Shown piece after piece: positions 11,840 through 34,614 of a stretch of 64,000 nt of DNA (position 1 is the first letter of the stretch; every line of letters begins with the position of its first letter). The stretch lies in assembly GCF_057098645.1 (NCBI RefSeq), contig NZ_CM169472.1; one strand, given 5' to 3'. The position numbers and the translations under genes are program-made. Under the pieces are notes generated by a model. That model saw only the letters and a program-made list of their open reading frames with translations. It ran no database searches and was not told the DNA's origin.

Positions 11840-12352
11840 TTAAATCGCAGCTTCCATTTCCAGCATCACCGGATGGAAACGGCGTTTAAAGTAGATAAGT
11901 CCGTGACCTTCTGCACTGAGGATGATGTTTTTAATCTCCACCAGATACACCAGATGTGTGCCAATTGCCTGCACATCGCGGATCTCACCTTCAAGACTGG
12001 CCAGCGAACCTTTTAGCACCGGCTGCGCCAGCGGACCTTTTTGCCAGCATGAGAGGCTAAAACGCTCTTCCATCGCCATGCCTGTCATGCCCGCGAAGTG
12101 GCGTGCCATCAGTTCCTGCTCATGGTTGAGGACGTTGACGCACAACTTGCCGTTGCCCTGAAAAACCGGGTTCATCGCACTGTTGGCGTTAATGCACACC
12201 ATCAGCGATGGTGGTGTATCAGTGACCGAGCAGACGGCCGTTGCCGTAATCCCGCATTGTCCGGCGTCGCCCTCGGTGGTGATAATATTTACCGCTGCCG
12301 ACAGGCTGGCCATCGCGTCACGAAAGCGCAGGCGTTGTTCATCTAATTGCAT
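11840..12352 (-). CDS. hpaC: 4-hydroxyphenylacetate 3-monooxygenase reductase component (flavin reductase)
   Basis: 170-aa ORF MQLDEQRLRFRDAMASLSAAVNIITTEGDAGQCGITATAVCSVTDTPPSLMVCINANSAMNPVF…. Confidence 0.9.
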   Translation of the reverse strand: MQLDEQRLRFRDAMASLSAAVNIITTEGDAGQCGITATAVCSVTDTPPSLMVCINANSAMNPVFQGNGKLCVNVLNHEQELMARHFAGMTGMAMEERFSLSCWQKGPLAQPVLKGSLASLEGEIRDVQAIGTHLVYLVEIKNIILSAEGHGLIYFKRRFHPVMLEMEAAI

Positions 12353-12369
12353 CTTAACCTCCTGCTGCG

Positions 12370-16633: not shown

Positions 16634-17422
16634 TTAATACACGCCGGGCTTAATCGCTGTAGCCTGCGCGCCAAACCGTGCTGCCAGCGCTTCGGCGGCG
16701 CGGGCGAGCAGGGTGGTGTCAACGCCGACGGCGACAAACAGCGCGCCCAGTTCCAGATAGCGTTTTGCCAGTTGCTCATTGGCGATCAGGATCCCCGGCG
16801 CCTTACCCGCTTCGCGGATCTGCACGATCGCCTGCTCAATCGCGGCCTGCACTTCCGGGTGTTGCGGATTACCGGCGTAACCCATATCGGCGCTCAGATC
16901 CGCTGGGCCGATAAACACGCCGTCGACTCCTTCCACGTCCAGAATCTGCGGTAAGTTCTTCATTGCCTCACGGGTTTCGATCTGCACCAGCACGCACATT
17001 TGATCGTTGGCTTTTTGCAGGTAATCAGGAATGCGATTCCAGCGCGAGGCGCGAGCCAGCGCACTGCCCACACCGCGAATACCGGCGGGGGGATAACGGG
17101 TGGCGCGTACCGCTTCACGGGCTTCGTCGGCGTTTTGTACCATCGGCACCAGTAAGGTTTGTGTGCCGACATCCAGCAGTTGTTTGATTTGCACCGGATC
17201 GTTCCACGACGGACGTACTACCGGCTGGCTGGGGTAGGGCGCAATCGCCTGTAGTTGGGTGAGCACGGTTTGCACGTTATTCGGCGCGTGCTCACCGTCG
17301 ATCAATAACCAGTCGAATCCTGCTCCGGCCAGTAACTCTGCGCTGTAGCTGCTACTCAGCCCCAGCCATAATCCGATCTGCGGGCGGCCTGCTTTCAGCG
17401 CCGCTTTAAAACTGTTTTCCAT
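16634..17422 (-). CDS. hpaI: 2,4-dihydroxyhept-2-ene-1,7-dioate (HpaI) aldolase
   Basis: Translation from [48 protein letters not shown]…; 262 aa. Confidence 0.85.
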
Positions 17423-17432
17423 CGTTCTCTCC

Positions 17433-18236
17433 TTAAACAAAGCGGCAGCTAATGGAGCCCATGTTGCCGTAATCGACGTGGAAGGTGTCGCCCTTACGCG
17501 CCGGAACCGGGCGGGTAAACGAACCGCCGAGAATGATTTGCCCGGCTTCCAGTTGTACGTCATACGGTGCGAGTTTGTTCGCCAGCCAGGCCACGCCGTT
17601 TGCCGGATGATTCAGCACACCAGCGGCGACGCCGGTTTCTTCAATCACGCCATTGCGATACATCAGGGCGGAGATCCAACGCAGATCCAGCTCGTCAGGT
17701 TTGATCGGACGACCACCGAGGATCACCCCGGCATTGGCGGCGTTATCAGAAATGGTGTCGAACACTTTGCGCGGGCGCTGGGTTTCCGGATCGATGTTGT
17801 GGCAGCGGGCGTCGATCAGCTCCAGCGCCGGGATCACATAGTCCGTGGCGTTGTAAACGTCGAACAGCGTGCAGTTTGGTCCACGCAGCGGTTTTGCCAG
17901 CACGAAAGCCAGCTCCACTTCAATGCGCGGCACGATAAAGCGATCGGTCGGGATATCGCTGCCATCGTGGAAGAACATGTCATCCAGCAGGGCACCGTAA
18001 TCCGGCTCGCTGATTTGTGAGCTGGCCTGCATAGCTTTCGAGGTCAGGCCGATTTTGTGGCCTTTCAGCGTACGGCCTTCGGCGATTTTCAGGCGAACCC
18101 ATTCGCGCTGCACGGCGTAGGCGTCTTCGATGGTGATCTCGGGGTAATCCAGGGAGATCGCGCGGATCTGTTCGCGCTGTTTTTCTGCCTGATCCAGACG
18201 CTGGGCGATCAGGGTGTGGGTGTGTTTATCGAACAT
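17433..18236 (-). CDS. hpaH: 2-oxo-hept-3-ene-1,7-dioate hydratase
   Basis: Translation from [46 protein letters not shown]…; 267 aa. Confidence 0.85.
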
Positions 18237-18303
18237 AGCGATATCCTGTGGCATTGCCGGATGCGGCAGCGCCTTATCATCCGGCCTGGAAGCTGGTGCA
18301 AAT

Positions 18304-18684
18304 TTATTTAAACAACGCGTGTACGTTGTTCTGTTTGAAATTCAACGTCGGGTGCAGCTCTGCAATCTCAAATGAAAGCGCCAGGTAACGGCTCTCCATC
18401 AGTGAGGCGAAGTGCGTTTTAATCAGATCAAACAGCATTTCGCCCACTTCCTGACGGCTTTCCAGACTGCGTCCGCTGCCGATTTTTAGCGTCATATGCA
18501 CAAAGGCGTAATCGTGCTTGCCATCAGCCATTTGCCAGGTATCGATCCAGTGCGCCCGGCTACGTATTCCCCCAAGCGGAAAAATCCCCGTTGCCGCCAG
18601 TGCAGTGTTAACACTGGCAAACAGCTCAGGTAAGCGGGCTTCTTCACGAATATTTTCAGTACATTCCACGATAAAGTGCGGCAT
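18304..18684 (-). CDS. hpaF: 5-carboxymethyl-2-hydroxymuconate isomerase
   Basis: 126-aa [49 protein letters not shown]…. Confidence 0.85.
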
Positions 18685-18693
18685 AAAACGTCC

Positions 18694-19545
18694 TTACGCG
18701 GGCAGCGGGAAAACAGCGTTAACCTGACCGGTGCCAGAGCTTGGGAACAGCTCGGTAATAAACTCCACCTTGCCGTCGTATTTATCCCAGCCGAGCATCC
18801 CCAGCAGCATCACCGTGTCGTGCATATTGCCTTCGCCGTAGCAGTAGTCGGCGTACTCCGGCAGCATATTGCAAAACTCTTTGAACTGGCCTTCGCGCCA
18901 CAGCTTCACCACACGCTCGTCCATCTGGCGGTCGAACTCGCGGGTGTAGCTGTTCATCCCTTCTTCCGCACGCTGATCGTCAATAAAGCGGTGCGATAAC
19001 GAACCGCTGGCAAGGACCGCCACGGTGCCGTCGTACTGTTCGATCGCTTTCAGAATCGCTTCGCCCAGCTTGCGGCTGTCGGCAAAATCGTGAACCGTGC
19101 AGAAAGCCGAAATGGAGACCACTTTGAAGTGCTTGTCTTCATTCATGTAGCGCATCGGTACCAGCGTGCCGTACTCCAGTTTCAGGCTGGGAATGTTGTG
19201 CGCTTTCGCCCGCACGCCGAGTTTTATTGCTTCATCGGCAATTAGCTGCCCCAACTCCGGGTTGCCTTCGTAGTTGTAGGTCATGTCGCGAATAAAGTGC
19301 GGCAGCTCGTTGCTGGTGTAGACGCCTTCAAAATGGTCTGCACAGTTGATGTGATAAGCACTGTTGACCAGCCAGTGGGTATCGAAAACGATAATGGTAT
19401 CGACGCCCATTTCCCGGCAACGCTTGCTGATCTCTTTATGTCCGTCGATCGCACCCTGGCGACAACCGTGGTTTTTTCCTGGTAGTTCAGAGAGATACAT
19501 CGACGGTACGTGCGTGATCTTGGCGGCTAACGCTAACTTACCCAT
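18694..19545 (-). CDS. hpaD: 3,4-dihydroxyphenylacetate 2,3-dioxygenase
   Basis: 283-aa ORF MGKLALAAKITHVPSMYLSELPGKNHGCRQGAIDGHKEISKRCREMGVDTIIVFDTHW…. Confidence 0.9.
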   Translation of the reverse strand: MGKLALAAKITHVPSMYLSELPGKNHGCRQGAIDGHKEISKRCREMGVDTIIVFDTHWLVNSAYHINCADHFEGVYTSNELPHFIRDMTYNYEGNPELGQLIADEAIKLGVRAKAHNIPSLKLEYGTLVPMRYMNEDKHFKVVSISAFCTVHDFADSRKLGEAILKAIEQYDGTVAVLASGSLSHRFIDDQRAEEGMNSYTREFDRQMDERVVKLWREGQFKEFCNMLPEYADYCYGEGNMHDTVMLLGMLGWDKYDGKVEFITELFPSSGTGQVNAVFPLPA

Positions 19546-19546
19546 A

Positions 19547-21013
19547 TCAGACTCCCCATTTCGGAATTGGATGGTCGCCCATGGAAATGCAGACGTTCTT
19601 CATTTCCGCGAACACTTCGAAGCTGTACTCACCGCCTTCACGCCCGGTGCCGGAGGCTTTTACGCCGCCAAACGGCTGGCGCAGGTCGCGCACGTTCTGG
19701 GTGTTGACGAACACCATGCCTGCTTCAATGCCACGCGCCAGGCGTAACACTTTGCTGACATCCTGTGTCCAGATGTACGACGCGAGGCCGTACTCCACGT
19801 CGTTTGCCAGGCGTAAGCCTTCGGCTTCATCTTTAAACGGCAGCAGGCAGGCGACCGGCCCGAAAATCTCTTCCTGGGCAACGCGCATACGGTTATCTAC
19901 GTCCGCCAGCACCGTTGGGCGCAGGAAGTTGCCGCCTTTCAGGTGCGCAGGCAGGTCGGACGGTTTATCCGGACCGCCCGCCAGCAGGGTTGCGCCTTCT
20001 TCAATGCCTAGACGGATATAGCCGGAGACTTTTTCCCAGTGCTGCTGGCTGATAAGAGCCCCAACCTGGGTGTTCGGATCGTTCGGATCGCCCACGCGCA
20101 GACGGTTGGCGCGTTCGGCAAAGCGTTTAACGAATTCTGGATAGATGCTCTGTTGAATAAAAATGCGCGAACCGGCGGTGCAGCGTTCGCCGTTGATTGA
20201 GAAGATGGTGAACAGGGCAGCGTCCAGCGCACGTTCAATATCGGCATCTTCAAAAATCAGCACCGGCGATTTACCGCCCAGTTCCATGGAGTATTTTTTC
20301 AGCCCGGCGTTTTTCATGATGTTGCGCCCGGTGGCCGTACCGCCGGTGAACGACACGGCACGTACGTCATGATGACGAACCAGCGCATCCCCTGCGGTTG
20401 CGCCGTAGCCCTGTACCACGTTCAGCACGCCCGCCGGAATACCGGCTTCCAGCGCCAGCTCACCCAGGCGGTCAGCGGTCAGCGGGGAGAGTTCCGACAT
20501 CTTCAGCACCGCGGTATTGCCCAGAGCCAGACACGGCGCGACCTTCCATGTGGCGGTCATAAACGGCACGTTCCACGGCGATACCAGCGCACAAACGCCT
20601 ACCGGTTGCACCAGCGTGTAGTTGAGCATCTTGTCGTCAACCGGATAGGTCTTGCCGTTCATCTGCTGGCAGACTTCCGCGAAAAATTCAAAGTTGTGAG
20701 AAGCGCGTGGGATCAACACATTTTTGGTCTGATGGATCGGCAGGCCCGTGTCCGCGGTTTCCATCGCGGCGATCTCAGGCACGTTCTGGTCGATCAGATC
20801 GCCCAGACGGCGCATCAGGCGCGCACGCTCTTTCATCGGCAGATTGGCCCATTTCGGGAACGCCTCTTTCGCTGCCGCTACCGCCTGATTGATCTCCGCT
20901 TCACCGCCAGAGGCCACATCCGCCAGCACTTCACCCGTTGCCGGATTGGTGGTCTGGAAGTAGTCGTTACCTGCGACATTTTTGCCGTTGATCCAATGAT
21001 TTACTTTTTTCAT
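19547..21013 (-). CDS. hpaE: 5-carboxymethyl-2-hydroxymuconate semialdehyde dehydrogenase
   Basis: 488-aa aldehyde dehydrogenase family ORF (…ELGGKSP…, catalytic Cys context GERCTAG). Confidence 0.9.
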   Translation of the reverse strand: MKKVNHWINGKNVAGNDYFQTTNPATGEVLADVASGGEAEINQAVAAAKEAFPKWANLPMKERARLMRRLGDLIDQNVPEIAAMETADTGLPIHQTKNVLIPRASHNFEFFAEVCQQMNGKTYPVDDKMLNYTLVQPVGVCALVSPWNVPFMTATWKVAPCLALGNTAVLKMSELSPLTADRLGELALEAGIPAGVLNVVQGYGATAGDALVRHHDVRAVSFTGGTATGRNIMKNAGLKKYSMELGGKSPVLIFEDADIERALDAALFTIFSINGERCTAGSRIFIQQSIYPEFVKRFAERANRLRVGDPNDPNTQVGALISQQHWEKVSGYIRLGIEEGATLLAGGPDKPSDLPAHLKGGNFLRPTVLADVDNRMRVAQEEIFGPVACLLPFKDEAEGLRLANDVEYGLASYIWTQDVSKVLRLARGIEAGMVFVNTQNVRDLRQPFGGVKASGTGREGGEYSFEVFAEMKNVCISMGDHPIPKWGV

Positions 21014-22299
21014 TTCGCTGTATCCTCACTCACAATTCGGTTCACCAGGCGGCCCACGCCTTCTACTTCCACCACTACTTCATCGCCAGGCACCACGTCA
21101 GATAAGCCTTTTGGTGTGCCGGTGGCGATCATGTCGCCCGGATTCAGGGTCATAAATTCGCTTAAGTAGGCGATCAGGAAGGGCACGCTGAAGATCAGAT
21201 CGGCGGTGGTGCCTTGCTGGCGTAACTCGCCGTTGACGAAGGTGCGAAGGGTCAGATTATGCGGGTCCGGGATCGCCTCTTTCGGCACGATGGTTGAAAG
21301 CATCGGCGTCAGTCCGTCGCGGCTTTTTACCCGCAGGTTAGGGCGGTAGTAGTTTTCCAGATAGTCGCGAATGGCGTAGTCGTTACACACGGTGTAGCCC
21401 GCGACATAATCCATGGCATCGGCTTCGCTGACGTTACGCGCCTGTTTGCCAATAACTACCACCAGCTCCGCTTCATAGTGCATGTATTCAATATTGTTTG
21501 GACGCACGGAGGTCTGGTTATCGCCAGTGAGGGTATTTGGCGCTTTCAGGAACACCAGCGGTTCTTCCGGTGGCTTAAATTCCAGTTCGCTGGCGTGGTC
21601 GGCGTAGTTCAGGCCGAGGGCAAACAGCGTACCGTGCGGGTGTGGCAGCGTTGGGAAGCTCTTGCGCGTGGTCACTTCACGTTCGTCCACTACCGGATTT
21701 TCCAGCGGCAGGAAACCTTCTGCGAGAACACGCACGCGATCGCCTGGCTGTATTTCCACGCGCGCCTGTGGCGTGCCGAGCAGAATGGCATCGCCTGGGT
21801 TCAGCGTGGCAAATTCGCTCAGGGCGCTCAGCAGCTGTGCGGCGTTACGTTGTAAATCGGCGGTGTTCCAGTGATCGGCAGGACGCCCGTTGATCTCGGT
21901 ATAGATAGTCAGATTATCGACATTGCTGAGAGCCACGGTTTCGCCAATGGGGCAGAATCCATCACGACATTTTGCTTTGATTGCCGGACGGTAAAAGCTC
22001 TCTTCCGGCAGGCTGACGTCGTTAGCCAGCGCATATCCGGCGATGTACTCTGCCGCATCTTCTTCACGTACTTTCGTCGCCGTTTTTCCCACAATCAGCG
22101 CAACTGTCGCACCGCTCAGTACCTTTTCACCCTGTGGAAAGGGAATCGGTTCACCGCAACCAATCACCGTATTGCGCGGTTTAATAAACCAGACCGCAGT
22201 TTTAGGCGGGGCTTTGTAGGGGGATTGCTGGAACGCTTCCTGCCAGGCATAAAGTTGGCTGCGATGGTTCAATGCTACGGCGAAGATAGTGCCTTTCAT
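21010..22299 (-). CDS. hpaG: Bifunctional 5-oxopent-3-ene-1,2,5-tricarboxylate decarboxylase / 2-hydroxyhepta-2,4-diene-1,7-dioate isomerase
   Basis: Translation from MKGTIFAVALNHRSQLYAWQEAFQQSPYKAPPKTAVWFIKPRNTV…; duplicated FAH-fold; 429 aa. Confidence 0.85.
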   Translation of the reverse strand: MKGTIFAVALNHRSQLYAWQEAFQQSPYKAPPKTAVWFIKPRNTVIGCGEPIPFPQGEKVLSGATVALIVGKTATKVREEDAAEYIAGYALANDVSLPEESFYRPAIKAKCRDGFCPIGETVALSNVDNLTIYTEINGRPADHWNTADLQRNAAQLLSALSEFATLNPGDAILLGTPQARVEIQPGDRVRVLAEGFLPLENPVVDEREVTTRKSFPTLPHPHGTLFALGLNYADHASELEFKPPEEPLVFLKAPNTLTGDNQTSVRPNNIEYMHYEAELVVVIGKQARNVSEADAMDYVAGYTVCNDYAIRDYLENYYRPNLRVKSRDGLTPMLSTIVPKEAIPDPHNLTLRTFVNGELRQQGTTADLIFSVPFLIAYLSEFMTLNPGDMIATGTPKGLSDVVPGDEVVVEVEGVGRLVNRIVSEDTAK

Positions 22300-22570
22300 T
22301 ACCACTCCTCGGATTCGATCATCTTGATCATTAATATGTTAATGATTGCTTTTATTCCCGATTGCGTAGTTTGGCAAAAGTAAGTGATATAAATGTGATC
22401 TAATTAACAAACTATTTACATTTAAAGATAATAAAATATTAAATATCAGTAAGTTAATAAAATATCATCAATTTTGATAAAATCAGGAATTGCGAGGACA
22501 GCTCAGTCCCGGTAACGTGACGATTAACTGTTTCTATATTAATGATTTTGAATTTTTCAGGGGAAAGATA

Positions 22571-23017
22571 ATGCACGACTCACTAACTATTGCGTTGCTC
22601 CAGGCGCGAGAAGCGGCGATGAGTTATTTTCGCCCAATCGTTAAACGGCATAATTTGACTGAGCAACAGTGGCGCATCGTGCGTATTCTGGCGGAAAGCC
22701 CATCAATGGATTTTCACGATCTGGCGTATCGCGCCTGCATTTTGCGCCCAAGCCTGACCGGGATCCTCACGCGGATGGAACGCGACGGTTTAGTGTTGCG
22801 ATTAAAGCCGATCAATGATCAGCGGAAGCTCTATATCTCGCTAACCAAAGAGGGGCAGGCGCTGTATAACCGCGCCCAGACACAGATTGAAGAAGCCTAT
22901 CGGCAGATTGAAGCTCAGTTTACTGCCGAGAAAATGCAACAGTTAACCCATCTGTTAGAGGAATTTATTGCTCTGGGCAATTCCCGACAAGAAGACATCC
23001 CGGGCGATAATGAATAA
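22571..23017 (+). CDS. hpaR: MarR-family repressor of the hpa meta-cleavage operon
   Basis: Translation from MHDSLTIALLQAREAAMSYFRPIVKRHNLTEQQWRIVRILAESPSMDFHDLA…; divergent from hpaG. Confidence 0.85.
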   Translation: MHDSLTIALLQAREAAMSYFRPIVKRHNLTEQQWRIVRILAESPSMDFHDLAYRACILRPSLTGILTRMERDGLVLRLKPINDQRKLYISLTKEGQALYNRAQTQIEEAYRQIEAQFTAEKMQQLTHLLEEFIALGNSRQEDIPGDNE

Positions 23018-23135: not shown

Positions 23136-24800
23136 ATGTTAAAACGTATCAAGATCGTGACCAGCTTACTGCTGGTTTTGGCCGTTTTTGGCCTTTTACA
23201 ACTGACATCAGGCGGTCTGTTCTTTAATGCCTTAAAGAATGACAAAGAAAATTTCACTGTTTTACAAACCATTCGCCAGCAGCAATCCACGCTGAATGGC
23301 AGCTGGGTCGCGTTGTTGCAGACGCGTAACACCCTCAACCGCGCGGGTATCCGCTACATGATGGATCAGAATAATATTGGTAGCGGTTCAACCGTTGCTG
23401 AGCTGATGCAGAGTGCCAGTATTTCGCTGAAACAGGCGGAAAAAAACTGGGCGGATTACGAAGCGTTGCCGCGTGACCCGCGTCAGAGCACCGCCGCAGC
23501 GGCAGAGATCAAACGTAATTACGATATTTATCACAATGCGCTGGCGGAGCTGATCCAACTGTTAGGTGCAGGCAAAATCAACGAGTTCTTTGATCAGCCA
23601 ACCCAGGGATATCAGGACGGTTTCGAGAAGCAGTATGTGGCTTACATGGAGCAAAACGATCGGCTCTATGATATCGCCGTCAGCGATAACAATGCCTCCT
23701 ACAGCCAGGCGATGTGGATTCTGGTGGGCGTGATGATCGTCGTACTGGCGGTCATCTTCGCCGTCTGGTTCGGTATTAAAGCCTCGCTGGTAGCGCCAAT
23801 GAATCGTCTGATTGACAGCATTCGTCATATTGCAGGCGGCGATCTGGTGAAACCAATTGAGGTGGATGGCTCTAATGAGATGGGGCAACTGGCAGAGAGT
23901 TTGCGCCATATGCAGGGAGAGCTGATGCGTACCGTCGGTGATGTGCGCAACGGGGCCAATGCCATTTATAGCGGTGCCAGCGAAATCGCCACCGGCAATA
24001 ACGATCTCTCTTCGCGCACCGAGCAACAGGCCGCTTCGCTGGAAGAGACGGCAGCCAGCATGGAGCAACTGACCGCAACGGTGAAACAGAACGCCGAGAA
24101 TGCGCGCCAGGCCAGCCACCTGGCGTTAAGTGCTTCTGAAACGGCGCAACGCGGCGGCAAAGTGGTAGATAACGTGGTGCAGACTATGCGTGATATCTCC
24201 ACCAGTTCGCAGAAAATCGCCGATATTATCAGCGTAATTGACGGCATTGCCTTCCAGACCAATATTCTGGCTTTGAACGCGGCGGTTGAAGCAGCGCGTG
24301 CGGGTGAGCAAGGACGTGGTTTTGCGGTGGTTGCGGGAGAAGTGCGTAATCTGGCCCAGCGTAGCGCTCAGGCGGCTCGTGAAATTAAAAGCCTGATTGA
24401 AGACTCGGTGGGGAAAGTGGATGTTGGCTCTACGCTGGTCGAAAGCGCCGGGGAAACAATGGCGGAGATTGTCAGTGCCGTGACCCGCGTGACGGACATT
24501 ATGGGCGAAATAGCTTCTGCTTCTGATGAGCAGAGCCGTGGTATCGATCAGGTTGGCTTAGCGGTTGCTGAGATGGACCGGGTAACTCAACAGAACGCCG
24601 CGCTGGTGGAAGAATCTGCCGCCGCCGCCGCCGCGCTGGAAGAGCAGGCCAGTCGCCTGACCGAAGCTGTGGCAGTGTTCCGGATTCAGCAACAGCAGCA
24701 ACAGCAGCGTGAAACATCGGCTGTGGTAAAAACCGTGACGCCAGCTGCGCTGCGTAAAATGGCCGTGGCAGATAGCGGGGAGAACTGGGAAACGTTTTAA
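23136..24800 (+). CDS. tsr: Methyl-accepting chemotaxis protein I (serine chemoreceptor), C-terminal NWETF
   Basis: 554-aa [83 protein letters not shown]…ENWETF. Confidence 0.9.
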
Positions 24801-24808
24801 CGCAATGA

Positions 24809-24838
24809 CGCCGGATGAGTATTTCATCCGGCGTTTTT
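24809..24838 (+). terminator. Rho-independent terminator after tsr (bidirectional with the convergent TRAP operon)
   Basis: cgccggatgagtatttcatccggcg hairpin followed by TTTTTATTATT. Confidence 0.6.
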
Positions 24839-24842
24839 ATTA

Positions 24843-26114
24843 TTAAACCAGGAACAGTGAAATCGCCGGGATATATGTCACCAGCATTAGCATTAATAGT
24901 AGAGCCGCCAGTAGAGGCAGGGATTGTTTAAAGAAATTTCCCACCGAAACTTGCGTGATGTTACATACCAGCAGCATCACGGTACCTACCGGTGGCGTGA
25001 ATGCGCCAATCGACAGGTTGAAGATCATGATGATGCCAAAATGCACCGGATCGATGCCAAAGTGTTCGACCACCGGTTTTAATAGTGGTACCAGGATCAG
25101 CAAAATGGCGTTTCCTTCCAGAAACATCCCCAGCGTCAGCAGCAATATGTTGATAATTAACAGGAACATATATTTATTTTCGGTCAGCGAAGTCACAAAA
25201 TTCGCCACTGCGACACCAGCATGTTCCATTGAGAAAATCCATCCCAACGCGGCGCTGGCCATGATTACCAGCATCACCGATGCGGTTGCGCGTGCCGTTT
25301 CGCCCAATGCTTTGACGACATGAGAAATCCGCATTTCACGATAGATAAAAAAGCCAATCGCCAGCACGATTAGCACCGCTGCTGCACCTGCTTCTGTTGG
25401 GGTGAAAATGTTAGCGCGAATACCACCCACCACAGCAAAAATGAGGAACAGCGCAGGCCAGGCCTGCCCCAGCGAGAACACCACCTCTTTGCCCGTAGGC
25501 CAGCTTTCACGCGAGGGTTTAGCGTTAGTTTTGCGGGCGACCAGGTAGACGGTAAACATCAGGACGACTGCGCATAGCAAACCAGGTACCAGACCGGCGA
25601 TAAACATTTTTCCGATAGAGACGTCGGCAACCAGACCGTAAATAATCAGGGCTATTCCCGGCGGTATGATCGGGGTGACTAACGAGCCACCAGCGGTAAT
25701 GGCGGCGGCAAATGCGCGATTGTAGCCTTTACGCTCCATCTCCGGCACCATCATGCGCGACAGCATCGCCGCGTCAGCAAGGTTAGAGGCGCTGACGCCG
25801 CCCATCATGGTGCTGACGAGAATGTTTGCCACGCCAAGTCCGCCGCGCATTTTCCCCACCAGAACGTTGGCAATGTGCAGGATGCGTTCGGCAATGCCGG
25901 TGTAGCTCATTAGTGTGCCGAGCAAGATAAAAAACGGAATTGCCAGCAATGATGGGCTTTGCGTTGGCGCGATCAGTCTTTGCACGGCAATTTCAATCGG
26001 TACGCTGGAGAAGAATAAAAAGTAAGCGATGATGCCAATAAACATCGCCAGATAGACCCGAATGTTGAGAAACAAACAGACGATCATTAGCGGAATAATC
26101 AATAACCAACTCAT
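24843..26114 (-). CDS. TRAP transporter large permease (DctM family)
   Basis: 423-aa polytopic ORF with DctM-family signature segments (…LLAIPFFILLGTLMSYTGIAERI…, …PIIPPGIALIIYG…). Confidence 0.8.
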   Translation of the reverse strand: MSWLLIIPLMIVCLFLNIRVYLAMFIGIIAYFLFFSSVPIEIAVQRLIAPTQSPSLLAIPFFILLGTLMSYTGIAERILHIANVLVGKMRGGLGVANILVSTMMGGVSASNLADAAMLSRMMVPEMERKGYNRAFAAAITAGGSLVTPIIPPGIALIIYGLVADVSIGKMFIAGLVPGLLCAVVLMFTVYLVARKTNAKPSRESWPTGKEVVFSLGQAWPALFLIFAVVGGIRANIFTPTEAGAAAVLIVLAIGFFIYREMRISHVVKALGETARATASVMLVIMASAALGWIFSMEHAGVAVANFVTSLTENKYMFLLIINILLLTLGMFLEGNAILLILVPLLKPVVEHFGIDPVHFGIIMIFNLSIGAFTPPVGTVMLLVCNITQVSVGNFFKQSLPLLAALLLMLMLVTYIPAISLFLV

Positions 26115-26584
26115 TGCATTTTTTCTCCGCTATCGGATTGTTTTATATCGTGTATTAACCAGTAGAGGGTATAAATAGCCGTTGCCAGTGCGCCGACAGG
26201 GACCGCCAGATCGATCCAGAACCAGGAAACCTTCAGAATTTGTGTCACTTTAAACTGCGCCATTTCGGCTAGTCGGTAGCCCAGCCAGGCCATATACAGC
26301 AGCAGTGTGATGGAGAGAACGGCGACCAGTACTGCAATAACACGCCTGTGTTTGCCTGGAAGCATCTCCATCAGGAAGGGAATGGTCAGGTGCGCCCTGT
26401 CACGTTCCGCCACCACTCCACCTAACATCACCACCCAAATCATCAGCATTCCCGACATTTCTTCTGTCCATTGAAGCGGTTGGCCGATGAAATAACGCAT
26501 AAATACCGCTCCAATTGTCATCACAACCAGAACGAATAGCGCAAAGGCAGCACTAAATTCTGCCACTTTGCCAAAAAGACGCAT
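26111..26584 (-). CDS. TRAP transporter small permease (DctQ family)
   Basis: 157-aa 4-TM ORF overlapping the DctM start by 4 nt (translational coupling). Confidence 0.7.
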   Translation of the reverse strand: MRLFGKVAEFSAAFALFVLVVMTIGAVFMRYFIGQPLQWTEEMSGMLMIWVVMLGGVVAERDRAHLTIPFLMEMLPGKHRRVIAVLVAVLSITLLLYMAWLGYRLAEMAQFKVTQILKVSWFWIDLAVPVGALATAIYTLYWLIHDIKQSDSGEKMQ

Positions 26585-26647
26585 GAAACCTCCTGTTAGT
26601 GCGTGTCCTGCCTAAGAGAGATGAGGCAGGACGCTGAGCATTAATGC

Positions 26648-27619
26648 TTATTGCAGTTGCTGTTGAATGGTTTCGTACAGACCTGGTGTCCATTCCGGGA
26701 ATTGAGAGTAAACTTCGCGTGCTTTCTTCTGGAATGGTCCAGTATCGGGATAGATCACTTCGACGCCCGCTGCCTGCATGGTTTTCAACATTTCGGCATC
26801 ACGCTCAAGAGTGAGTTTCTGGCTATAGACACCCGCTTCATAGCCGGTCTGGTGGATCATCTCCAGTTGTTCTGGTGAAAGGGTGCTAAAGAAGGCTTCA
26901 CTACCTATCCATACTGAGGTATTTGTCAGGTAGTTAACCATTGTCAGATATCTTGCCTGCTCATACAGTTTTTGCCCTTGCAGCACTGAAATTGGGTTTT
27001 CTACGCCGTCAATGACGCCCTGGGTTAATGCGGGATAAACTTCGCCTAATGGCATGGGAGTTGGTGTTGCCCCCATCGCCTGAATGGCTTTTATTTGCAT
27101 GACGTTATTAGGAACGCGAATTTTTAAGCCTGCGAGATCGTCAACGGTGCGAATGGGTTTTTTCGAAATAATCTGTCGAGTGCCATAGAGATAATTATTC
27201 ATTACCACATGAATTCCCTTTTTCTTCAGACTTTCATTTTTTTGTTTAAACCAGTCGCTTTCATATATTTTGAACAGTTTTTGTGGATCGTCAGTCAGAT
27301 ACGGTCCAAACAAAATACCCAAATCGGGTTCATAATCGGCAAGAAAGGCCACATCACTCAAGGTTATGACATTCATGCCCATCATGGCTTGCTCGGTGAC
27401 ATCCTGTTTTGAGCCCAATTGGGAACTTGGATAGAGCGCAAGTGTTATTTCGCCATTACTTTTTTTATTTAATAGGTCTGCCCAGTAACGCATGACCACA
27501 TCCAGGGGTTCTCCAGGGTTATTTTCATAGGCAACTTTTATCGAAATAGGTTTTGCCTGGATTATTGACGGTAAAAAAAGGGTACTGACAGTAATTAGCA
27601 TCGCTATTATTTTGCTCAT
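26648..27619 (-). CDS. TRAP transporter periplasmic substrate-binding protein (DctP family)
   Basis: 323-aa ORF with N-terminal signal peptide MSKIIAMLITVSTLFLPSIIQA; AT-rich relative to flanks. Confidence 0.8.
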   Translation of the reverse strand: MSKIIAMLITVSTLFLPSIIQAKPISIKVAYENNPGEPLDVVMRYWADLLNKKSNGEITLALYPSSQLGSKQDVTEQAMMGMNVITLSDVAFLADYEPDLGILFGPYLTDDPQKLFKIYESDWFKQKNESLKKKGIHVVMNNYLYGTRQIISKKPIRTVDDLAGLKIRVPNNVMQIKAIQAMGATPTPMPLGEVYPALTQGVIDGVENPISVLQGQKLYEQARYLTMVNYLTNTSVWIGSEAFFSTLSPEQLEMIHQTGYEAGVYSQKLTLERDAEMLKTMQAAGVEVIYPDTGPFQKKAREVYSQFPEWTPGLYETIQQQLQ

Positions 27620-28298
27620 CTTTACTTACTCCATGCTAAGGAAATAAAACTCCAACATTGTTGTCGGGAGTGAAACCTTATGAAAAAGCAGTCATTACTG
27701 AAAAGTAGTCAGCGAATAGCGGAATGGCTGCAGATGTGTCATAAATTCGTGCACCGGGTAATACTTTGCTGCTTTTAATCGGTTTTTAATGCATTTTTTG
27801 ATTGTATATCTTAAAGTTATGTAATGCATGACGTTACAAGGAACACCCTCTGATGAGTTTAGTTACCGCTGATAAGATCTCTTATTCGGTTGATGATTTA
27901 TTAAAAATAAAATCATTAATTTGGCTGTGGCTATTTTTACAGATAAAAACTAAGTGTTGACGCAGAATGGTGGTATCCATTAAATTTATTTAGTGCTGAT
28001 TTAATACATTTGCTGAACGTATAATTCATGCTGACGTTAAAAGAAAGCCGTCATTCACTAAATAACTTGTTCGGCAAGGAGATCAAAGAGTAACGGATGA
28101 TTCGTTACAACGGTTAAAGGTAGTAAATATTCACGTGATGAATTTGTTATCAACTGGAAAACTCATCTCACTGGTTTCCTCCTGAGCATGTGAGTGAACG
28201 TTGTGATTAATGATTAACGTTAAGTGCTAACCAGGGCGCTTTTATGAAGTTAAATTAATAATATCCATTATTTATGAATGAGGAAGCCTGTTTATTAT

Positions 28299-29951
28299 AT
28301 GGAAATATTTTTAACAATTTTAATTCTTACGTTGGTAGTATCATTAACCAGCGTGCTTACGCGTCTGTCTCCTGTTCAGATACCACTTCCTTTAATCCAG
28401 ATTGCCGCTGGCGCTTTACTGGCCCAACCCATATTTGGTCTGCATGTGGAATTCAATCCTGAACTTTTTCTCTTATTGTTTATACCCCCCTTGTTGTTTG
28501 CTGAAAGCTCAAAAATACAACCTAAAGAATTGATCAAGCACAGTCGGGAAATTGTCAGCCTGGCGCTTGTGTTGGTGCTAATCACTATTTTTGGTGTCGG
28601 CTATGTGATTCATTTACTCTTACCGAATGTGCCGCTCATCGCTGCTTTCGCATTAGCCGCCGTGTTGTCGCCTACCGATGCCGTGGCGTTGCTGGGGATT
28701 GTCGGGAAAGGGCGTATCAGCAAAAACATCCAGGAAGTGCTCGAAGGCGAAGCGTTGATGAATGATGCTTCCGGCCTGGTGGCGTTGAAATTTGCTGTTG
28801 CAGTGACGATGGGAACGATGGAATTCAGCGTTCATGGCGCAACCATTGCGTTTTTTGTCGTTGCGTTGGGTGGTATTGCCGTGGGGATCGCTGTTACCTG
28901 GTTATATGGCAAAGGGCTGCTGTTGATCAGTCGATATGCTCACGATGAACCTTCCATTCAGATTGTATTGATGCTTCTGTTGCCGTTTATTGTTTATCTG
29001 GTTGCGGAACATTTTGGCTTATCTGGCATTCTTGCCGCTGTCGCCGCGGGGTTAACAACCAGTCGCATTGGCGTAGTCCACCACGCGCCTATCCGCCTGA
29101 GAATTAAAGCTAAAAGTAGCTGGTCGATGCTTGAATATGTCTTTAACGGCATGGTGTTTCTGATTTTAGGCTTACAACTGCCGGGCATTATTTCGGAATC
29201 ACTGATCCGTGCAGAAAACGATCCACTGGTAGACACCGGATCGCTGCTCCTTGATGTCATTTGGATCTACCTGGCGTTAATGGTTGTGCGCCTGGGCTGG
29301 CTTTGGCTGATGCGTCTGTATAGCCGTAAACGACCCGGCAAACATCCGATGCTGTTTGCTGGATATAAAACGCGTCATATGCTGCTGGCGACCTTTGCGG
29401 GGGGGCGCGGAGCCATCACGCTTGCGGGGGTGCTTTCTATCCCGTTATTGCTGCCGGATGGCACACCTTTTCCCGGGCGTTACTTACTGGTATTTCTCGC
29501 CACAGGTGTGATCCTCTTTTCGCTGGTTTGCGGCATTATTATTCTGCCGTTACTACTGGGGAAAAATGTGGGCATTTTCAGCGATAACCGGCAAAAAGAA
29601 GAGGAAGCTGCCGATCTGTTTATGGCCAAAATGGCCATACTCAGTGTGCAAAAGACTGAGCAACGTTTGCTACGCACCAGTACAGAAAACCTCGACAACG
29701 AGTTGATTATGGAAACAGGGGCCAGAGTTATCGGTTATATGCGGCGTAGCGAAGATGATATGTCGGAAAATGATAATTCTTTACATATGCAGCGCGCGAA
29801 GTTGGAAAGAACATTTAATCTGGCAGCGTTAAATGCCAGGCGTGCGGCTATTTACCAGATGCGTGCACGGCAAGAAGTCAGTGATGAAACACTGGCAAAA
29901 ATAGTCAGTGAATTAGATGTGCTGGAAACGTTAATCATGGATAGCCGATAA
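28299..29951 (+). CDS. CPA1-family Na+/H+ exchanger, YjcE-like
   Basis: ORF 28278..29951; translation from MEIFLTILILTLVVSLTSVLTRLSPVQIPLPLIQIAAGALLAQPIFGLHVEFNPELF… resembles YjcE; C-terminal cytoplasmic tail. Confidence 0.75.
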   Translation: MEIFLTILILTLVVSLTSVLTRLSPVQIPLPLIQIAAGALLAQPIFGLHVEFNPELFLLLFIPPLLFAESSKIQPKELIKHSREIVSLALVLVLITIFGVGYVIHLLLPNVPLIAAFALAAVLSPTDAVALLGIVGKGRISKNIQEVLEGEALMNDASGLVALKFAVAVTMGTMEFSVHGATIAFFVVALGGIAVGIAVTWLYGKGLLLISRYAHDEPSIQIVLMLLLPFIVYLVAEHFGLSGILAAVAAGLTTSRIGVVHHAPIRLRIKAKSSWSMLEYVFNGMVFLILGLQLPGIISESLIRAENDPLVDTGSLLLDVIWIYLALMVVRLGWLWLMRLYSRKRPGKHPMLFAGYKTRHMLLATFAGGRGAITLAGVLSIPLLLPDGTPFPGRYLLVFLATGVILFSLVCGIIILPLLLGKNVGIFSDNRQKEEEAADLFMAKMAILSVQKTEQRLLRTSTENLDNELIMETGARVIGYMRRSEDDMSENDNSLHMQRAKLERTFNLAALNARRAAIYQMRARQEVSDETLAKIVSELDVLETLIMDSR

Positions 29952-30121
29952 TTTTATCGCTGCCAGTAATAGGGAGTTAAATGATGGCTGAGAGTAATAC
30001 TTCCAGCATCGTTTATTCCCTATGTATTTCCTTATGGGCAGAACAATCGCCTGAATTAATACTGCATTAATACAACATAGTGATATAAACCAAGAATCAA
30101 TGTTTTTAATCTGTACTTAAT

Positions 30122-31027
30122 TTATCGGTGATGTTGCCTGATGGAACGAATCATTGATTGTTTGGCGGTATCCAGATGGTTTCGCAACGCCGTTATTGCA
30201 TCTAAATCGCTACGGCAAATCAGGGCGCTGAGAATGGTCATATGCTCATCAACAGCAATGATATTGCGCTGCTTGAGATCGCTTTCATCCCATTGATAGT
30301 GAAAATGAAAGATCACCGAGATAATTTCAAGTGATTGATTAAAAAAGATGTTGTCAGCAGCGGATAACAGCATGGCATGAAAATCACGGTCTAATTGAGA
30401 AAACATCCGAAAGTTGCTGCCAATGCTGTCGCGCAATGTCCTGTGACGTTCGAGCATGGTTTTCGCCTGCAACCAGCGGGGATCGTCATCGGGAAGGTTG
30501 AGAAAGTGTTGCAGGGAATGTGTTTCGAGCATTTCGCGTAGCTCAAACAGCTGCTCGGCGTAGGATTGATCGAACTGCTTCATGCTCCACTGGCCGCGCT
30601 TTTCGCTTTGAATAAGATTATAACGACCGAATTTCAAAAGATATTCTCGCACCACTACCGGACTGACGCCTGCCGCTCGCGCCAGCTGAAGTTCGGAAAA
30701 GCTTTCTCCGGCGCGTAACTGACGCAGGTTAATCATGGTGAAAAATGCCTGCTCGAAAAGACGGTTTTGCTCTTTCAGCGAGGCCGTGATGCAATCAAAT
30801 CCATCGTTCTGTTCGGGTTTGCGGGCGATAACATAATTTTTCCCCACCAGGGTGAGCACGCCACATGCGCTTAAATGCTGGAGTATGTGGCGTACCGTAG
30901 TGCGACTGATGTTATACATTTCTGCCAGCCCGCTTTGTGAAGGCAGCGGAGAAGGAATATTGCCCCTCGCCATATCTTCAATTACCTGATTTATGACGTT
31001 ATGACGTAAATTCTGCGAACGACTCAT
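30122..31027 (-). CDS. lgoR: GntR-family regulator of L-galactonate catabolism LgoR (YjjM)
   Basis: 301-aa ORF MSRSQNLRHNVINQVIEDMARGNIPSPLPSQSGLAEMYNISRTTVRHILQHLSACGVL…. Confidence 0.8.
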   Translation of the reverse strand: MSRSQNLRHNVINQVIEDMARGNIPSPLPSQSGLAEMYNISRTTVRHILQHLSACGVLTLVGKNYVIARKPEQNDGFDCITASLKEQNRLFEQAFFTMINLRQLRAGESFSELQLARAAGVSPVVVREYLLKFGRYNLIQSEKRGQWSMKQFDQSYAEQLFELREMLETHSLQHFLNLPDDDPRWLQAKTMLERHRTLRDSIGSNFRMFSQLDRDFHAMLLSAADNIFFNQSLEIISVIFHFHYQWDESDLKQRNIIAVDEHMTILSALICRSDLDAITALRNHLDTAKQSMIRSIRQHHR

Positions 31028-31165
31028 TCTTCCCTCCAGTTCGGCATTAAAAACCGATTTAAAACATTTTTATGCGTGATCATCCGCATATTTTATGGGT
31101 AAATTCAGGCGCTCTTATAAATTCGACGATATCTGAAAGTCATAAAATAAAAGGAGCGGTGAATC

Positions 31166-32188
31166 ATGTCCACAATGAAAGTATTAATTTGTCAGGAAAT
31201 AAAGAATTTAGTATGGGAAGTCCGGGAAAGACCGGTGCCAGGCGATAATGAAGCATTAATAAAAATTAAAACTGTCGGGATTTGCGGTACAGATATTCAT
31301 GCCTGGGCGGGCAATCAACCATTTTTTAGTTATCCACGCGTTTTAGGCCATGAAATATGTGGGGAGATTATTGAATCAGGAAAAAACATTCACAATTTTA
31401 ATATCGGACAGCAAGTTGCGGTAATTCCGTATATTTCTTGTCAGCAATGCCCGGCGTGTAAAAGCGGGCGTACAAATTGCTGTGAAAAAATTTCAGTCAT
31501 TGGCGTGCATCAGGATGGCGGTTTTAGTGAGTATTTGAACGTGCCGGTGGCGAACATTTTGCCCGCAGACGGTATTGACCCGCAGGCGGCCGCATTGATT
31601 GAACCTTTCGCTATTAGCGCTCATGCGGTGCGTCGCGCAGCCATTGCTCCCGGCGAGCAGGTGCTGGTGGTCGGGGCGGGGCCAATCGGTCTGGGCGCGG
31701 CGGCAATCGCTAAAGCCGATGGCGCACAGGTGGTGGTGGCGGATACCAGTCCGGCGCGCCGTGAACATGTGGCAACGCGTCTGGAGTTGCCCGTGCTGGA
31801 CCCGTCAGCCGAAGATTTTGACGCGCAGCTGCGGGCGCAGTTTGGTGGTTCGCTGGCGCAGAAAGTGATCGACGCGACAGGTAATCAACATGCGATGAAT
31901 AACACCGTGAATCTGATTCGTCACGGCGGCACGGTGGTATTTGTCGGCCTGTTTAAAGGTGAGTTGCAGTTCTCCGATCCGGAATTCCATAAAAAAGAAA
32001 CGACGATGATGGGCAGCCGCAACGCCACGCCGGAAGATTTTGCTAAAGTCGGTCGACTGATGGCGGAAGGAAAAATCACTGCTGACATGATGTTAACCCA
32101 TCGCTATCCGTTCGCCACGCTGGCAGAAACCTACGAGCGCGATGTGATTAACAATCGTGAGTTAATTAAAGGCGTAATTACTTTCTGA
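31166..32188 (+). CDS. lgoD: L-galactonate 5-dehydrogenase (Zn-dependent MDR family) LgoD (YjjN)
   Basis: 340-aa ORF with GHEICGEI zinc motif and GAGPIGLGAAAIAKADGA Rossmann motif. Confidence 0.85.
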   Translation: MSTMKVLICQEIKNLVWEVRERPVPGDNEALIKIKTVGICGTDIHAWAGNQPFFSYPRVLGHEICGEIIESGKNIHNFNIGQQVAVIPYISCQQCPACKSGRTNCCEKISVIGVHQDGGFSEYLNVPVANILPADGIDPQAAALIEPFAISAHAVRRAAIAPGEQVLVVGAGPIGLGAAAIAKADGAQVVVADTSPARREHVATRLELPVLDPSAEDFDAQLRAQFGGSLAQKVIDATGNQHAMNNTVNLIRHGGTVVFVGLFKGELQFSDPEFHKKETTMMGSRNATPEDFAKVGRLMAEGKITADMMLTHRYPFATLAETYERDVINNRELIKGVITF

Positions 32189-32325
32189 TAAGGCGAGATT
32201 ATTAAAGTTGCCATGCAGCGTCCGGGGAAGTGTTGGGCGCTGTTTTTTTTGTTTCTTAATAATGTGTTGTAAGCCGGAGAAGGTGTGTAGGTCGCACCCT
32301 ATGCGACCTACATATCAGTCAGGAA

Positions 32326-34614
32326 TTACCCTTCACGTTCTACCACTTTAATTTCCACCATGCCGATCCCGAGCTTACGCGGCGAGTGTCCGAGGATATT
32401 CCCTTCGTTGGTTGAGACAGGTTCCGGCGGCACAATTACCAGTGTGTCGGCATCGGTTGGGTTATCGAAATGCAGTGTGGTGGTGGTCACTTCATTGCCC
32501 AGCACAAGAGTTTGTTCTTCATTGCCTACGCGTACCGGAATAGGACGGCTGGCGTTATTGCCGTATGCTTTGGCGGTAATCACCAGGTCAAATTTCTTCG
32601 GCAGCGGATGCTTGTACTCGATTTTTACTTCATCGCCCAGCTGCGCGTTGGACCAGCGGCCCCACGACTCCGGACGGGAAATCCCGCTAAACTGTTTCAC
32701 CTCTTCTGGCGCACCGGCGACGTTAAAGATGAAACTGTCGGCTTTGTAGCGAATATCGTTATCAACAATCTTCAGCGTATCGACATTGCCTTTGTAACGC
32801 GCCATGTCGATGACCGTATCTTTAAATGCCGTCTTGCTCTTCCATGTTGTTTTGTCAACATGCTGAACAATTTGCTGACCGCCAAGCTGCCCCTGCGAGA
32901 CACACCAGTCGGTGGAAAGTGCCAGTTCCGGAGCCCAGAGTTGTGCCATCTTGTAGCAACGGTCAACCCAGACGAAATTGTCGCGTGGAGCGAAATCGGC
33001 CAGCTGGAAACGCAGCGGTGCTGAGTATTCGCTTTCCGGCAGCGGTTCCACGCGTTTGTCTGAAACCCGCAACAGCAGCGGCAAACGGAAATGGCTACCC
33101 GAGAAGGCAATCATGTTTTTCTGCTGGTCGATGGTGAACTCTTTCATCTCTTTAGGGAATTTCCACAGGCGGATGATATCTGGCTTCCACGCCAATGTTT
33201 TCTCTTTGATATTGAGGAAGATTTCCGACATCGACTGCCCGGATAAACTGCTACGACCAAGTCCGAGATAGTTATCGCCACCGAGAATGTCCAGCACCGT
33301 CGCGCCGTTATCCATCGTGTTACGCTTCACTGCCAGCGTCTCTTGCTGCGGCTTGTCGCCACGAATGACAAAAAACAGGTTATTGCGATCCTGCTTATTG
33401 AGGTATTTCCACGCCGTGTTGTTCATCGCTAAATGGTCAGAAGAGACGACGATGACGGTATCTTTAAACCACGGTGACGCTTTGATTTTGTTGATAAACG
33501 TCGCGATGTTCTCCTGGCTGCAACTTACCGCGCTGAATGACTGATTCGGCTTACCGTCAAAATCATATTTTTTGCGGTTACAGGTGCGCGAGATAAAACC
33601 ATCCGGGTGATGGGTATCGACTGTCAGGGTAAACAGTGAGAATCGCTGACCTGAGCGGGAAAGCTCTTCAAACTTTTTCCACGCTTCATCGAGAACGGTA
33701 TCGTCGTAGAATCCCCAGTCGTTGCGATAGTGCGGGTCGGCTACCACGCTTTTCAGCTCTTCTGAGCCGTATAAGTGGTCGAAGCCATGCGACTTCAGGA
33801 ACACATCTTTACCGGCAAAACGCAGATTCGCGCCCTGCACGAAATAGTTCTGATAACCCGAGTTTTTCAGGATATCGCCCAGACAGATGTTCTGCGGGAA
33901 GAAGCTGGAAACAGAAGCGGAGGCGTTACCTTCAAAGGGGGCAAACAGCGGTATGCCACACTGAGAAGCCACCATGCCCGCAATCGTGTAATCTGTTCCC
34001 GGCAGCTGCTGCGTGTGGCTGAAATCCAGGCCTTCATCTTTCAACGCGCCCAGTTCAGGCGTGAGATCCGGGAAAGCCTCGTTATCAAAATAGGTCCGCT
34101 CGAGACTTTCGCCGTAGATATAAACCAGGTTGAGTTTCGGGTCAGGGATAGTTTTCGATGGCTCTTTATAATAAGCCGCAAAGTCCGGGTCGCCGTCGCG
34201 TGACTGGGATTTCACCAGTTCCGTTATCTGACGAAATGCCGGGCTGGCGTCCACCGAACCCAGCGCCAGTAAGAGCGCCAGCAGGCTGTAACCAAAATGG
34301 TGCGGATGATGACGACGGCGCAGGATCCAGCCCAGCGCACCGAACACCGCCGTCAGCCCCAGCACAATGCCGATACCCGGCAGGATGTATTTGCTGACGC
34401 CAGCACCGGTCAGGCTGTTGGTTAAGGTATAGAGAACCGCGTCGTTAATACCATCGCCAGTAAAATAGTCGCTGGCAAACAGGGTGATATTTAAAACGAC
34501 AAATAGCCCCAGCACCGTTAATGTGGCTGCAAACCACCAGGTGTTACGTCCCGCTTTCCATGCGTAAATCAGCACAGAGGCGAGAAAAAGGGCGAAAGAG
34601 AGTAGTTCTGACAA
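32326..34614 (-). CDS. opgB: Phosphoglycerol transferase I (OPG biosynthesis)
   Basis: 762-aa [65 protein letters not shown]…. Confidence 0.9.

Follow-up and report, generated by a model that had tools for sequence, protein, structure and literature searches.

Escherichia coli K-12 is the reference for L-galactonate catabolism. In K-12, the lgoT gene product (YjjL), a single-component L-galactonate:H+ symporter of the MFS/ACS class, was recently shown to be the sole L-galactonate importer, with a KM of 37 uM, and a delta-lgoT mutant does not grow on L-galactonate (bioRxiv 10.64898/2026.05.20.726482). Strains that lack lgoT therefore need another importer if they are to use a retained lgoD, the gene for L-galactonate 5-dehydrogenase. 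Here we describe a 64,000-nucleotide stretch of contig NZ_CM169472.1 (assembly GCF_057098645.1), hereafter the window, in which the lgoT slot is occupied by an unrelated, three-component, binding-protein-dependent transporter of the DctPQM type, a member of the tripartite ATP-independent periplasmic (TRAP) class. We consider it likely that this operon is the alternative uptake module of the L-galactonate (lgo) locus and does the job of K-12 LgoT. Its presumed substrate and downstream pathway are the same as those of LgoT, and it is probably Na+-coupled, by analogy with characterized TRAP systems.

The closest solved relatives of the window's substrate-binding protein, DctP, come from the TRAP screen of the Enzyme Function Initiative: 4OVT (Oant_3902 of Ochrobactrum anthropi) and 4O8M (EFI-510004, from Actinobacillus succinogenes). 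SiaPQM of Haemophilus influenzae and Vibrio cholerae shares the architecture and provides the mechanistic model for Na+-driven elevator transport; its ligand and subfamily differ, the binding proteins being ~27–30% identical to the window DctP with TM-scores of 0.8–0.84 and a conserved arginine pair. K-12 has a sugar-acid TRAP transporter of its own, YiaMNO, which takes 2,3-diketo-L-gulonate and belongs to a different locus and subfamily; the window DctM scores 238 bits against the YiaN model, for which the equivalog cut-off is 800 bits. In the case described here, a known transporter is replaced by a non-orthologous one whose family is itself known and structurally characterized. Such strain-level transporter swapping is fairly ordinary and not surprising in kind. 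Our literature search found no description of this E. coli locus.

The window is E. coli DNA, and positions 24700–30100 are 100% identical to O145 strain RM9872. The open reading frame list and PGAP agree on the gene order: tsr, dctM-dctQ-dctP on the minus strand, a divergently transcribed CPA1-family antiporter gene, lgoR, lgoD and opgB. Up to lgoD, this is the arrangement that the original prediction had read from the sequence, and NCBIfam models support the family assignments. The order tsr-lgoT-lgoR-lgoD-opgB was found in both K-12 MG1655 and strain MRE162, so the stated position of lgoT between tsr and lgoR was correct. Alignment with K-12 confirmed a replacement at the lgoT slot, but one larger than first proposed. 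In blastn, identity to K-12 stops at 24808 and formally restarts at 30101. From 30101 to ~31490, sliding identity is 59–90% per 100–200-bp window, and beyond that point it is 98–100%. Because the segment from 30101 to ~31490 matches K-12 poorly, the true alternative haplotype is ~24809–31490 and not 24843–29951. It comprises the following features:

24809–31490 (approximate): whole alternative haplotype block relative to K-12, containing the TRAP operon, the antiporter, the deeply diverged lgoR, the spacer that separates lgoR from lgoD, and ~320 bp at the 5' end of lgoD (blastn, sliding identity)
24843–26114, minus strand: dctM, TRAP large permease, 423 aa (TIGR00786)
26111–26584, minus strand: dctQ, TRAP small permease, 157 aa, with a 4-bp overlap with dctM (PGAP)
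26648–27619, minus strand: dctP, periplasmic substrate-binding protein, 323 aa (TIGR00787, PDB matches)
27620–28298: AT-rich spacer between dctP and the antiporter gene, 679 bp, 34.5% GC (composition)
27791–30100: antiporter module, consisting of the CPA1 gene with 508 bp of AT-rich DNA on its 5' side and 149 bp on its 3' side (lying between two copies of a 21-bp motif)
28299–29951, plus strand: CPA1-family Na+/H+ antiporter gene, yjcE paralogue, 550 aa (TIGR00831)
30122–31027, minus strand: lgoR, GntR/FCD regulator, 301 aa, haplotype-specific allele (comparison with K-12)
31166–32188, plus strand: lgoD, L-galactonate 5-dehydrogenase, 340 aa, its 5' third in the diverged block (comparison with K-12 LgoD)

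A genome of ST1193, a phylogroup B2 clone, has the same structure at ~98% identity and the same right-hand breakpoint inside lgoD. The window lgoR allele is 87% identical to K-12 lgoR at the amino acid level and ~81% at the nucleotide level. The proportion of synonymous differences (pS) between the two alleles, 0.66, is on a par with what separates the core genes of E. coli from those of Citrobacter amalonaticus (tsr 0.64, opgB 0.68). LgoD is 93.5% identical to K-12 LgoD, and the lgoD pS falls from 0.50 over the first 321 nt to 0.04 over the remainder.

To place the haplotype in the species, we used a collection of 5426 complete E. coli genomes. The whole cassette was present in 856 of these (about 16%) and lgoT in 4520 (about 83%). 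The original prediction would have been undermined had lgoT been found elsewhere in the same genomes; instead, dctP and lgoT proved mutually exclusive. A chimeric query made of 600 bp of dctP and 600 bp of lgoT matched 5383 places in 5381 genomes, with both halves covered at no place. The two genes can therefore occur together in at most two genomes. The lgoR alleles were likewise bimodal and agreed with the transporter type, 843 genomes carrying an allele at least 95% identical to that of the window and 4407 an allele at ~81%. Judging from strain names among the hits, the cassette is carried by Shiga-toxin lineages of O145 and O26 and by the pandemic ST1193 clone. About 16% of sequenced E. 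coli thus lack lgoT and carry an unrelated, binding-protein-dependent system that is probably of higher affinity. Metabolic models and predictions of phenotype based on K-12 would wrongly score such strains as unable to take up L-galactonate. As side observations, ~45 of the 5426 genomes matched neither dctP nor lgoT, and strain MSI001 has kept the antiporter gene while its dctP is reduced to a 196-bp fragment.

The three genes dctM, dctQ and dctP are contiguous, as expected of a three-component TRAP system. DctM matches TIGR00786 with 397 bits, and DctP matches TIGR00787 with 182 bits as well as NF037995. DctQ is assigned by PGAP, and PF04290 is recorded for its orthologue in L079. DctM and DctQ are 94% and 80% identical in amino acid sequence to their C. 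amalonaticus orthologues. The dctP gene is AT-rich, as originally noted (43.5% GC against 50% for the window). The ratio of nonsynonymous to synonymous substitution rates (dN/dS) is 0.02 for dctM and lies between 0.02 and 0.10 for dctM, dctP, the antiporter gene and lgoR, being low both within E. coli and against Citrobacter. For dctQ, dN/dS is ~1.1 between the O145 and ST1193 copies, which differ by a handful of substitutions, and 0.05 against Citrobacter; the higher value is probably sampling noise in a 157-codon gene.

DctP begins with a hydrophobic, signal-like leader (MSKIIAMLITVSTLFLPSIIQA). Its best match of known structure is 4OVT (E 4e-146, ~75% identity over residues 24–322), followed by 4O8M (E 6e-80, ~41% identity over the whole mature protein). 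An AlphaFold (AF2) model of DctP built from 32 homologues had a mean confidence score (pLDDT) of 89. In a Foldseek search with this model, 4OVT and 4O8M were again the top two hits, with E-values of 7e-46 and 1e-36 and target-normalized TM-scores of 0.91–0.93. The two entries are reportedly L-fuconate and L-galactonate complexes from the work of Vetting et al. (2015). According to PMC5507952, the 2015 study characterized a Chromohalobacter TRAP transporter with dual L-fuconate/L-galactonate specificity, which is non-orthologous to that paper's Halomonas TRAP. A conserved arginine of TRAP binding proteins, R147 in SiaP and R145 in VcSiaP, binds the ligand carboxylate. In DctP, the counterparts of the carboxylate-binding R125 and R145 of VcSiaP are R148 and R168, respectively. 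Neither arginine varies among the 32 homologues, and both are also conserved in 4OVT and 4O8M, which share the DctP fold and subfamily. R148 and R168 are predicted to form the carboxylate clamp of DctP. Every sequence-level criterion applied places the system among the DctP-type TRAP transporters, in the 4OVT/4O8M subfamily, and makes it part of the lgo locus.

We then surveyed the surroundings of orthologous TRAP operons, taking one genome per species (65 related loci). An LgoD-family dehydrogenase gene was found beside the TRAP operon at 57 of the 65 loci, a UxaA-like dehydratase gene at 42 and a UxaB-like reductase gene at 34; in the window, lgoD lies 3.5 kb from the operon. Loci of the Ochrobactrum type have the order uxaB-like / GntR / uxaA-like / lgoD-like / dctPQM, a gene set that is a complete route from L-galactonate to 2-keto-3-deoxygluconate (KDG). 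Partner sizes are similar, with 157 aa for DctQ and 423 aa for DctM in the window against 173 and 424 aa for the solved relatives' operon. The Ochrobactrum regulator is ExuR/UxuR-like and of the GntR family, whereas the candidate regulator of the E. coli operon is of the LgoR type (301 aa, GntR and FCD domains). Unlike in Ochrobactrum, the window operon is parted from its regulator gene by the antiporter gene. In C. amalonaticus the order is opgB-lgoD-lgoR-dctPQM-tsr, with lgoR and dctPQM directly contiguous. Annotation masks the link in E. coli: the product name is 'C4-dicarboxylate TRAP transporter', and in genomes with the cassette PGAP leaves lgoR unnamed and lists LgoD as a generic zinc-binding dehydrogenase.

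A second, paralogous TRAP cluster, whose binding protein is 72% identical to the window DctP, was seen in E. albertii, E. whittamii and some E. coli (L007, L008 and L010, ~5000–13500), and ~106 complete genomes gave 60–80% matches. Besides the transporter, this cluster encodes a separate GntR regulator, a Zn-dehydrogenase of the LgoD-like kind, a short-chain dehydrogenase/reductase and a dehydratase resembling the UxaA C-terminus. The region of strain BEN2908 designated 'GR 21' (PMC12928451) probably corresponds to it. We had considered the TRAP/YjjN-homologue region of BEN2908 (PMC12928451) as an instance of the locus described here, and rejected it since it appears to be this different, paralogous cluster.

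The original prediction had proposed a search for LgoR operator sites upstream of the TRAP operon. We found a 21-bp tandem motif with the consensus ATTAAAAAC-NN-ATTAAAAACA, present in three copies in the 64-kb window where 0.00 are expected by chance:

27770–27790, minus strand: motif copy ATTAAAAACCGATTAAAAGCA, ~150 bp upstream of dctP (motif scan)
30101–30121, minus strand: motif copy ATTAAGTACAGATTAAAAACA, abutting the lgoR stop codon and matching the K-12 copy before lgoT at 20 of 21 positions
31046–31066, plus strand: motif copy ATTAAAAACCGATTTAAAACA, 100 bp upstream of lgoD and pointing toward lgoD (motif scan)

When the K-12 lgoD site was used as an independent probe, with up to three mismatches allowed, only the lgoD and dctP sites were found in the window. 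The motif is kept at equivalent positions in K-12 (before lgoT and before lgoD), in ST1193, in two C. amalonaticus and in Escherichia sp. E4742, six genomes in all when the window is counted. The lgoD-side copy is a conserved island in a spacer that is otherwise poorly conserved among E. coli, K-12 and Citrobacter. On the transporter side, ~50 bp following the dctP-side copy are homologous to the regions upstream of K-12 lgoT and of Citrobacter dctP. LgoT and the window operon thus share the tsr-lgoR slot, the orientation downstream of lgoR, the 21-bp motif and the promoter-proximal sequence. The regulatory front end appears to have been retained while the transporter behind it differs, which fits control by LgoR, and the motif is a candidate LgoR operator. 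The locus also offers a natural experiment in which H+-coupled and TRAP uptake of the same substrate could be compared under one regulatory scheme. The lgo genes have been reported to respond to hexuronate regulators; the ExuR/UxuR box AATTGGTATACCAATT, at up to three mismatches, was not found in the window. At 31071–31090, adjoining the lgoD-side motif on its downstream side, lies a 20-bp palindrome (TATGCGTGATCATCCGCATA) that is haplotype-specific, the corresponding K-12 sequence being unrelated. The palindrome might act as a further operator or form a small hairpin.

These observations suggest the following scheme. DctP would capture L-galactonate, and probably also its 6-deoxy analogue L-fuconate, through the Arg148/Arg168 carboxylate clamp, and would hand the ligand to DctQM for import driven by a cation gradient. 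In characterized SiaPQM systems this gradient is one of Na+. LgoD would oxidize the imported L-galactonate to D-tagaturonate, which would enter the core UxaB/UxaA pathway. The linked LgoR allele probably governs transcription of dctPQM and lgoD via the 21-bp tandem ATTAAAAAC motif before both promoters. The CPA1 antiporter is a YjcE paralogue whose gene was inserted between lgoR and the promoter of dctP; a link between it and the TRAP system is putative. The proposal that the TRAP system imports L-galactonate or a related acid in place of LgoT, under LgoR control, is therefore strengthened by the exclusivity with lgoT, by 4OVT and 4O8M as the nearest solved relatives, by the lgoD/uxaA/uxaB contexts and by the shared motif; the ligand, the dependence on LgoR and the ion coupling are inferred from sequence.

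The antiporter itself matches TIGR00831 (a_cpa1) with 526 bits against a cut-off of 279.6, and PF00999 is also recorded. It is a full-length paralogue of K-12 YjcE (59% amino acid identity), a protein of the same TIGR00831 family encoded by a separate gene at a separate locus and annotated in K-12 merely as a 'putative transporter'. Translation could start at 28278 or 28299; PGAP and homologues favor 28299. The reading frame is intact with a dN/dS of 0.09, which indicates purifying selection, and the TD and ND motifs of the transport core are present (SPTD at 124–127, LMND at 153–156). By family it is a CPA1 Na+/H+ antiporter, and exchange activity is predicted.

It had been suggested that the antiporter supplies the Na+ gradient used by the TRAP system. 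In the most explicit form of this idea, the antiporter would export the Na+ that enters with the substrate, the two forming one Na+-cycling module. The antiporter was found in 857 genomes, always as one chromosomal copy and in the same set as the TRAP cassette, a perfect linkage that nevertheless follows from physical adjacency alone. The intact frame and motifs, and the same arrangement in Escherichia sp. E4742, would also fit. Outside Escherichia, Klebsiella sp. I138 and Limnobaculum carry an orthologue (77% identity) that likewise diverges from a TRAP operon, one unrelated to that of the window, its DctP being only 26% identical and its DctQ without a detectable match. A further orthologue is found two genes away from a Na+-coupled symporter of the DASS type. 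Conservation at the orthologous TRAP loci gives the suggestion no support, however. In C. amalonaticus the orthologous TRAP operon occupies the same locus without the antiporter, with a single motif copy and with lgoR and dctP 184 bp apart, and no antiporter was found within 10 kb of any of the 65 related TRAP loci. Since the antiporter module lies between two motif copies and is absent from C. amalonaticus, it was inserted into an older lgoR-dctPQM arrangement; it is also divergently transcribed and preceded by a 508-bp 5' region of its own. For the TRAP subfamily in question, Na+ coupling is itself putative, and E. coli already has NhaA, NhaB and ChaA. A functional coupling between antiporter and TRAP system is possible but unproven, and we regard a Na+-cycling module as doubtful. 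It is a small and tractable question.

The 679-bp spacer between dctP and the antiporter gene showed no foreign dctP remnant and no homology to the Klebsiella/Limnobaculum spacer. The closest antiporter orthologues (76–78%) are scattered over Klebsiella sp. I138/Limnobaculum, Edaphovirga and contig L076. The Edaphovirga copy lies ~100 kb from the TRAP operon on the same 222-kb contig, beside Rep3/ParA/ParG genes in a plasmid-like context. The antiporter gene also recombines occasionally with yjcE. An E. coli isolate assembly (L071, 10001–11653) has the order ghxP-[yjcE 5' ~850 nt + antiporter 3']-lgoR-lgoD, and a metagenome contains dctP-[antiporter 5' ~500 nt + yjcE 3']-...-actP-yjcH (L077, 1133–2782). 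Because yjcE and the antiporter gene are ~315 kb apart in direct orientation, the former has the appearance of a deletion junction, and such a deletion should be lethal. No yjcE/antiporter hybrid was found in the complete-genome collection.

With respect to the history of the two haplotypes, the full TRAP-antiporter-lgoR-lgoD arrangement recurs in Escherichia sp. E4742, whose lgoR belongs to the window type, with 87–90% identity to the window allele against 62–89% to that of K-12. Conservation between E4742 and the window is uneven: 92–97% in the antiporter coding region, ~90% in the core flanks, ~86% in the TRAP genes and 47–73% in the spacer upstream of the antiporter gene, as seen when 27635–28440 on the spacer side is compared with 28445–29650 in the antiporter coding region. 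Perhaps the antiporter gene was exchanged at a later time than the DNA around it. Between E. coli and C. amalonaticus, pS is 0.69–0.72 for dctM and dctP and 0.64–0.68 for the flanking core genes. A recent import of the TRAP genes from C. amalonaticus was ruled out on this basis, pS being equal to that of the flanking core genes. Taken with the findings in E4742, this suggests that the locus has long held the TRAP haplotype, which may even be the ancestral one. The lgoT haplotype would then represent either the second branch of a deep polymorphism or introgressed DNA. A bolder scenario, which we think rather unlikely as a whole, would make the lgo locus an ancient two-state polymorphism in which transporter, regulator allele and operator region travel together. 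TRAP operon, antiporter and 'W-type' lgoR would then be the ancestral Escherichia state and the K-12 lgoT haplotype an incomer risen to ~83%; the antiporter would have joined the TRAP system to recycle Na+ as its dedicated partner, the same pairing having arisen independently, with an unrelated TRAP system, in Limnobaculum/Klebsiella sp. I138.

Several points weigh against L-galactonate uptake under LgoR control, and most of them concern the ligand. The nearest solved relative, 4OVT, was reportedly crystallized with L-fuconate and not with L-galactonate. Gene context is also not uniform. The closest non-Citrobacter orthologue, that of Edaphovirga cremea (83% identity in the binding protein), adjoins otnK and otnC, genes for 3-oxo-tetronate kinase and 3-oxo-tetronate-4-phosphate decarboxylase that follow the TRAP operon (L058, 13073–15069). 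It is a hint that part of the clade has a role in the breakdown of four-carbon sugar acids. The neighbors of the Affinibrenneria orthologue (80%) are a DASS transporter and DcuSR. From these two contexts, specificity may drift within the clade. As for regulation, the 21-bp motif could bind a factor other than LgoR, and no sigma-70 promoter stood out downstream of the motif, promoter-like hits there being no commoner than in shuffled sequence.

The TRAP system might accordingly import another sugar acid, such as L-fuconate only, L-gulonate or a tetronate (threonate, erythronate), its adjacency to lgoRD reflecting history and not present function. L-Gulonate comes into question because LgoD acts on it too, to judge from the title of Kuivanen and Richard (2014). 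Yet lgoD and lgoR are intact and under purifying selection here in the absence of lgoT, the transporter promoter region and motif are kept from the lgoT arrangement, and lgoD-like genes stand beside 57 of the 65 orthologous operons. In addition, no fuconate dehydratase gene was found within the flanking DNA that was classified. We therefore judge a different sugar acid to be an improbable sole substrate, and uptake of L-galactonate remains our preferred reading.

A C4-dicarboxylate transporter, as implied by the PGAP name 'C4-dicarboxylate TRAP transporter substrate-binding protein', is very improbable. Apart from this annotation, the Affinibrenneria orthologue near DcuS/DcuR and a DASS transporter points in that direction. 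The PGAP name, however, is generic and inherited from the family, and DctP matches only the subfamily-level models TIGR00787 and NF037995. Moreover, the best solved relatives are 4OVT and 4O8M, presumably with sugar-acid ligands, and not DctP-type dicarboxylate binders, and most loci have an lgoD/uxaA/uxaB neighborhood. That the cassette is a neutral or decaying accessory insertion hitch-hiking at a recombination-prone site is hardly credible, for despite variable flanks (the hpa cluster abuts tsr here but not in K-12 or ST1193) and AT-rich intergenic DNA (~34% GC), its four reading frames are intact with low dN/dS within E. coli and against Citrobacter, the same structure is found in O145, ST1193 and a non-coli Escherichia, and the regulatory motif is conserved.

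An Rfam scan of 24000–32500 gave no match. At and beyond the ends of the haplotype block lie the following features:

23136–24800, plus strand: tsr (open reading frame list, PGAP)
24807–24835, plus strand: hairpin with a 13-bp stem and a T-run behind it, in the gap where tsr and dctM converge (terminator scan)
32326–34614, minus strand: opgB (open reading frame list, PGAP)

The hairpin is probably the terminator of tsr and is possibly bidirectional. Immediately upstream of tsr, at ~16700–23017, the window carries the hpa (4-hydroxyphenylacetate) cluster from hpaI to hpaR. In K-12, MRE162 and ST1193, btsT and not hpa adjoins tsr, and homology to K-12 begins at 23075. Taken together with the TRAP/lgoT difference, the hpa/btsT difference shows that both flanks of tsr are polymorphic.

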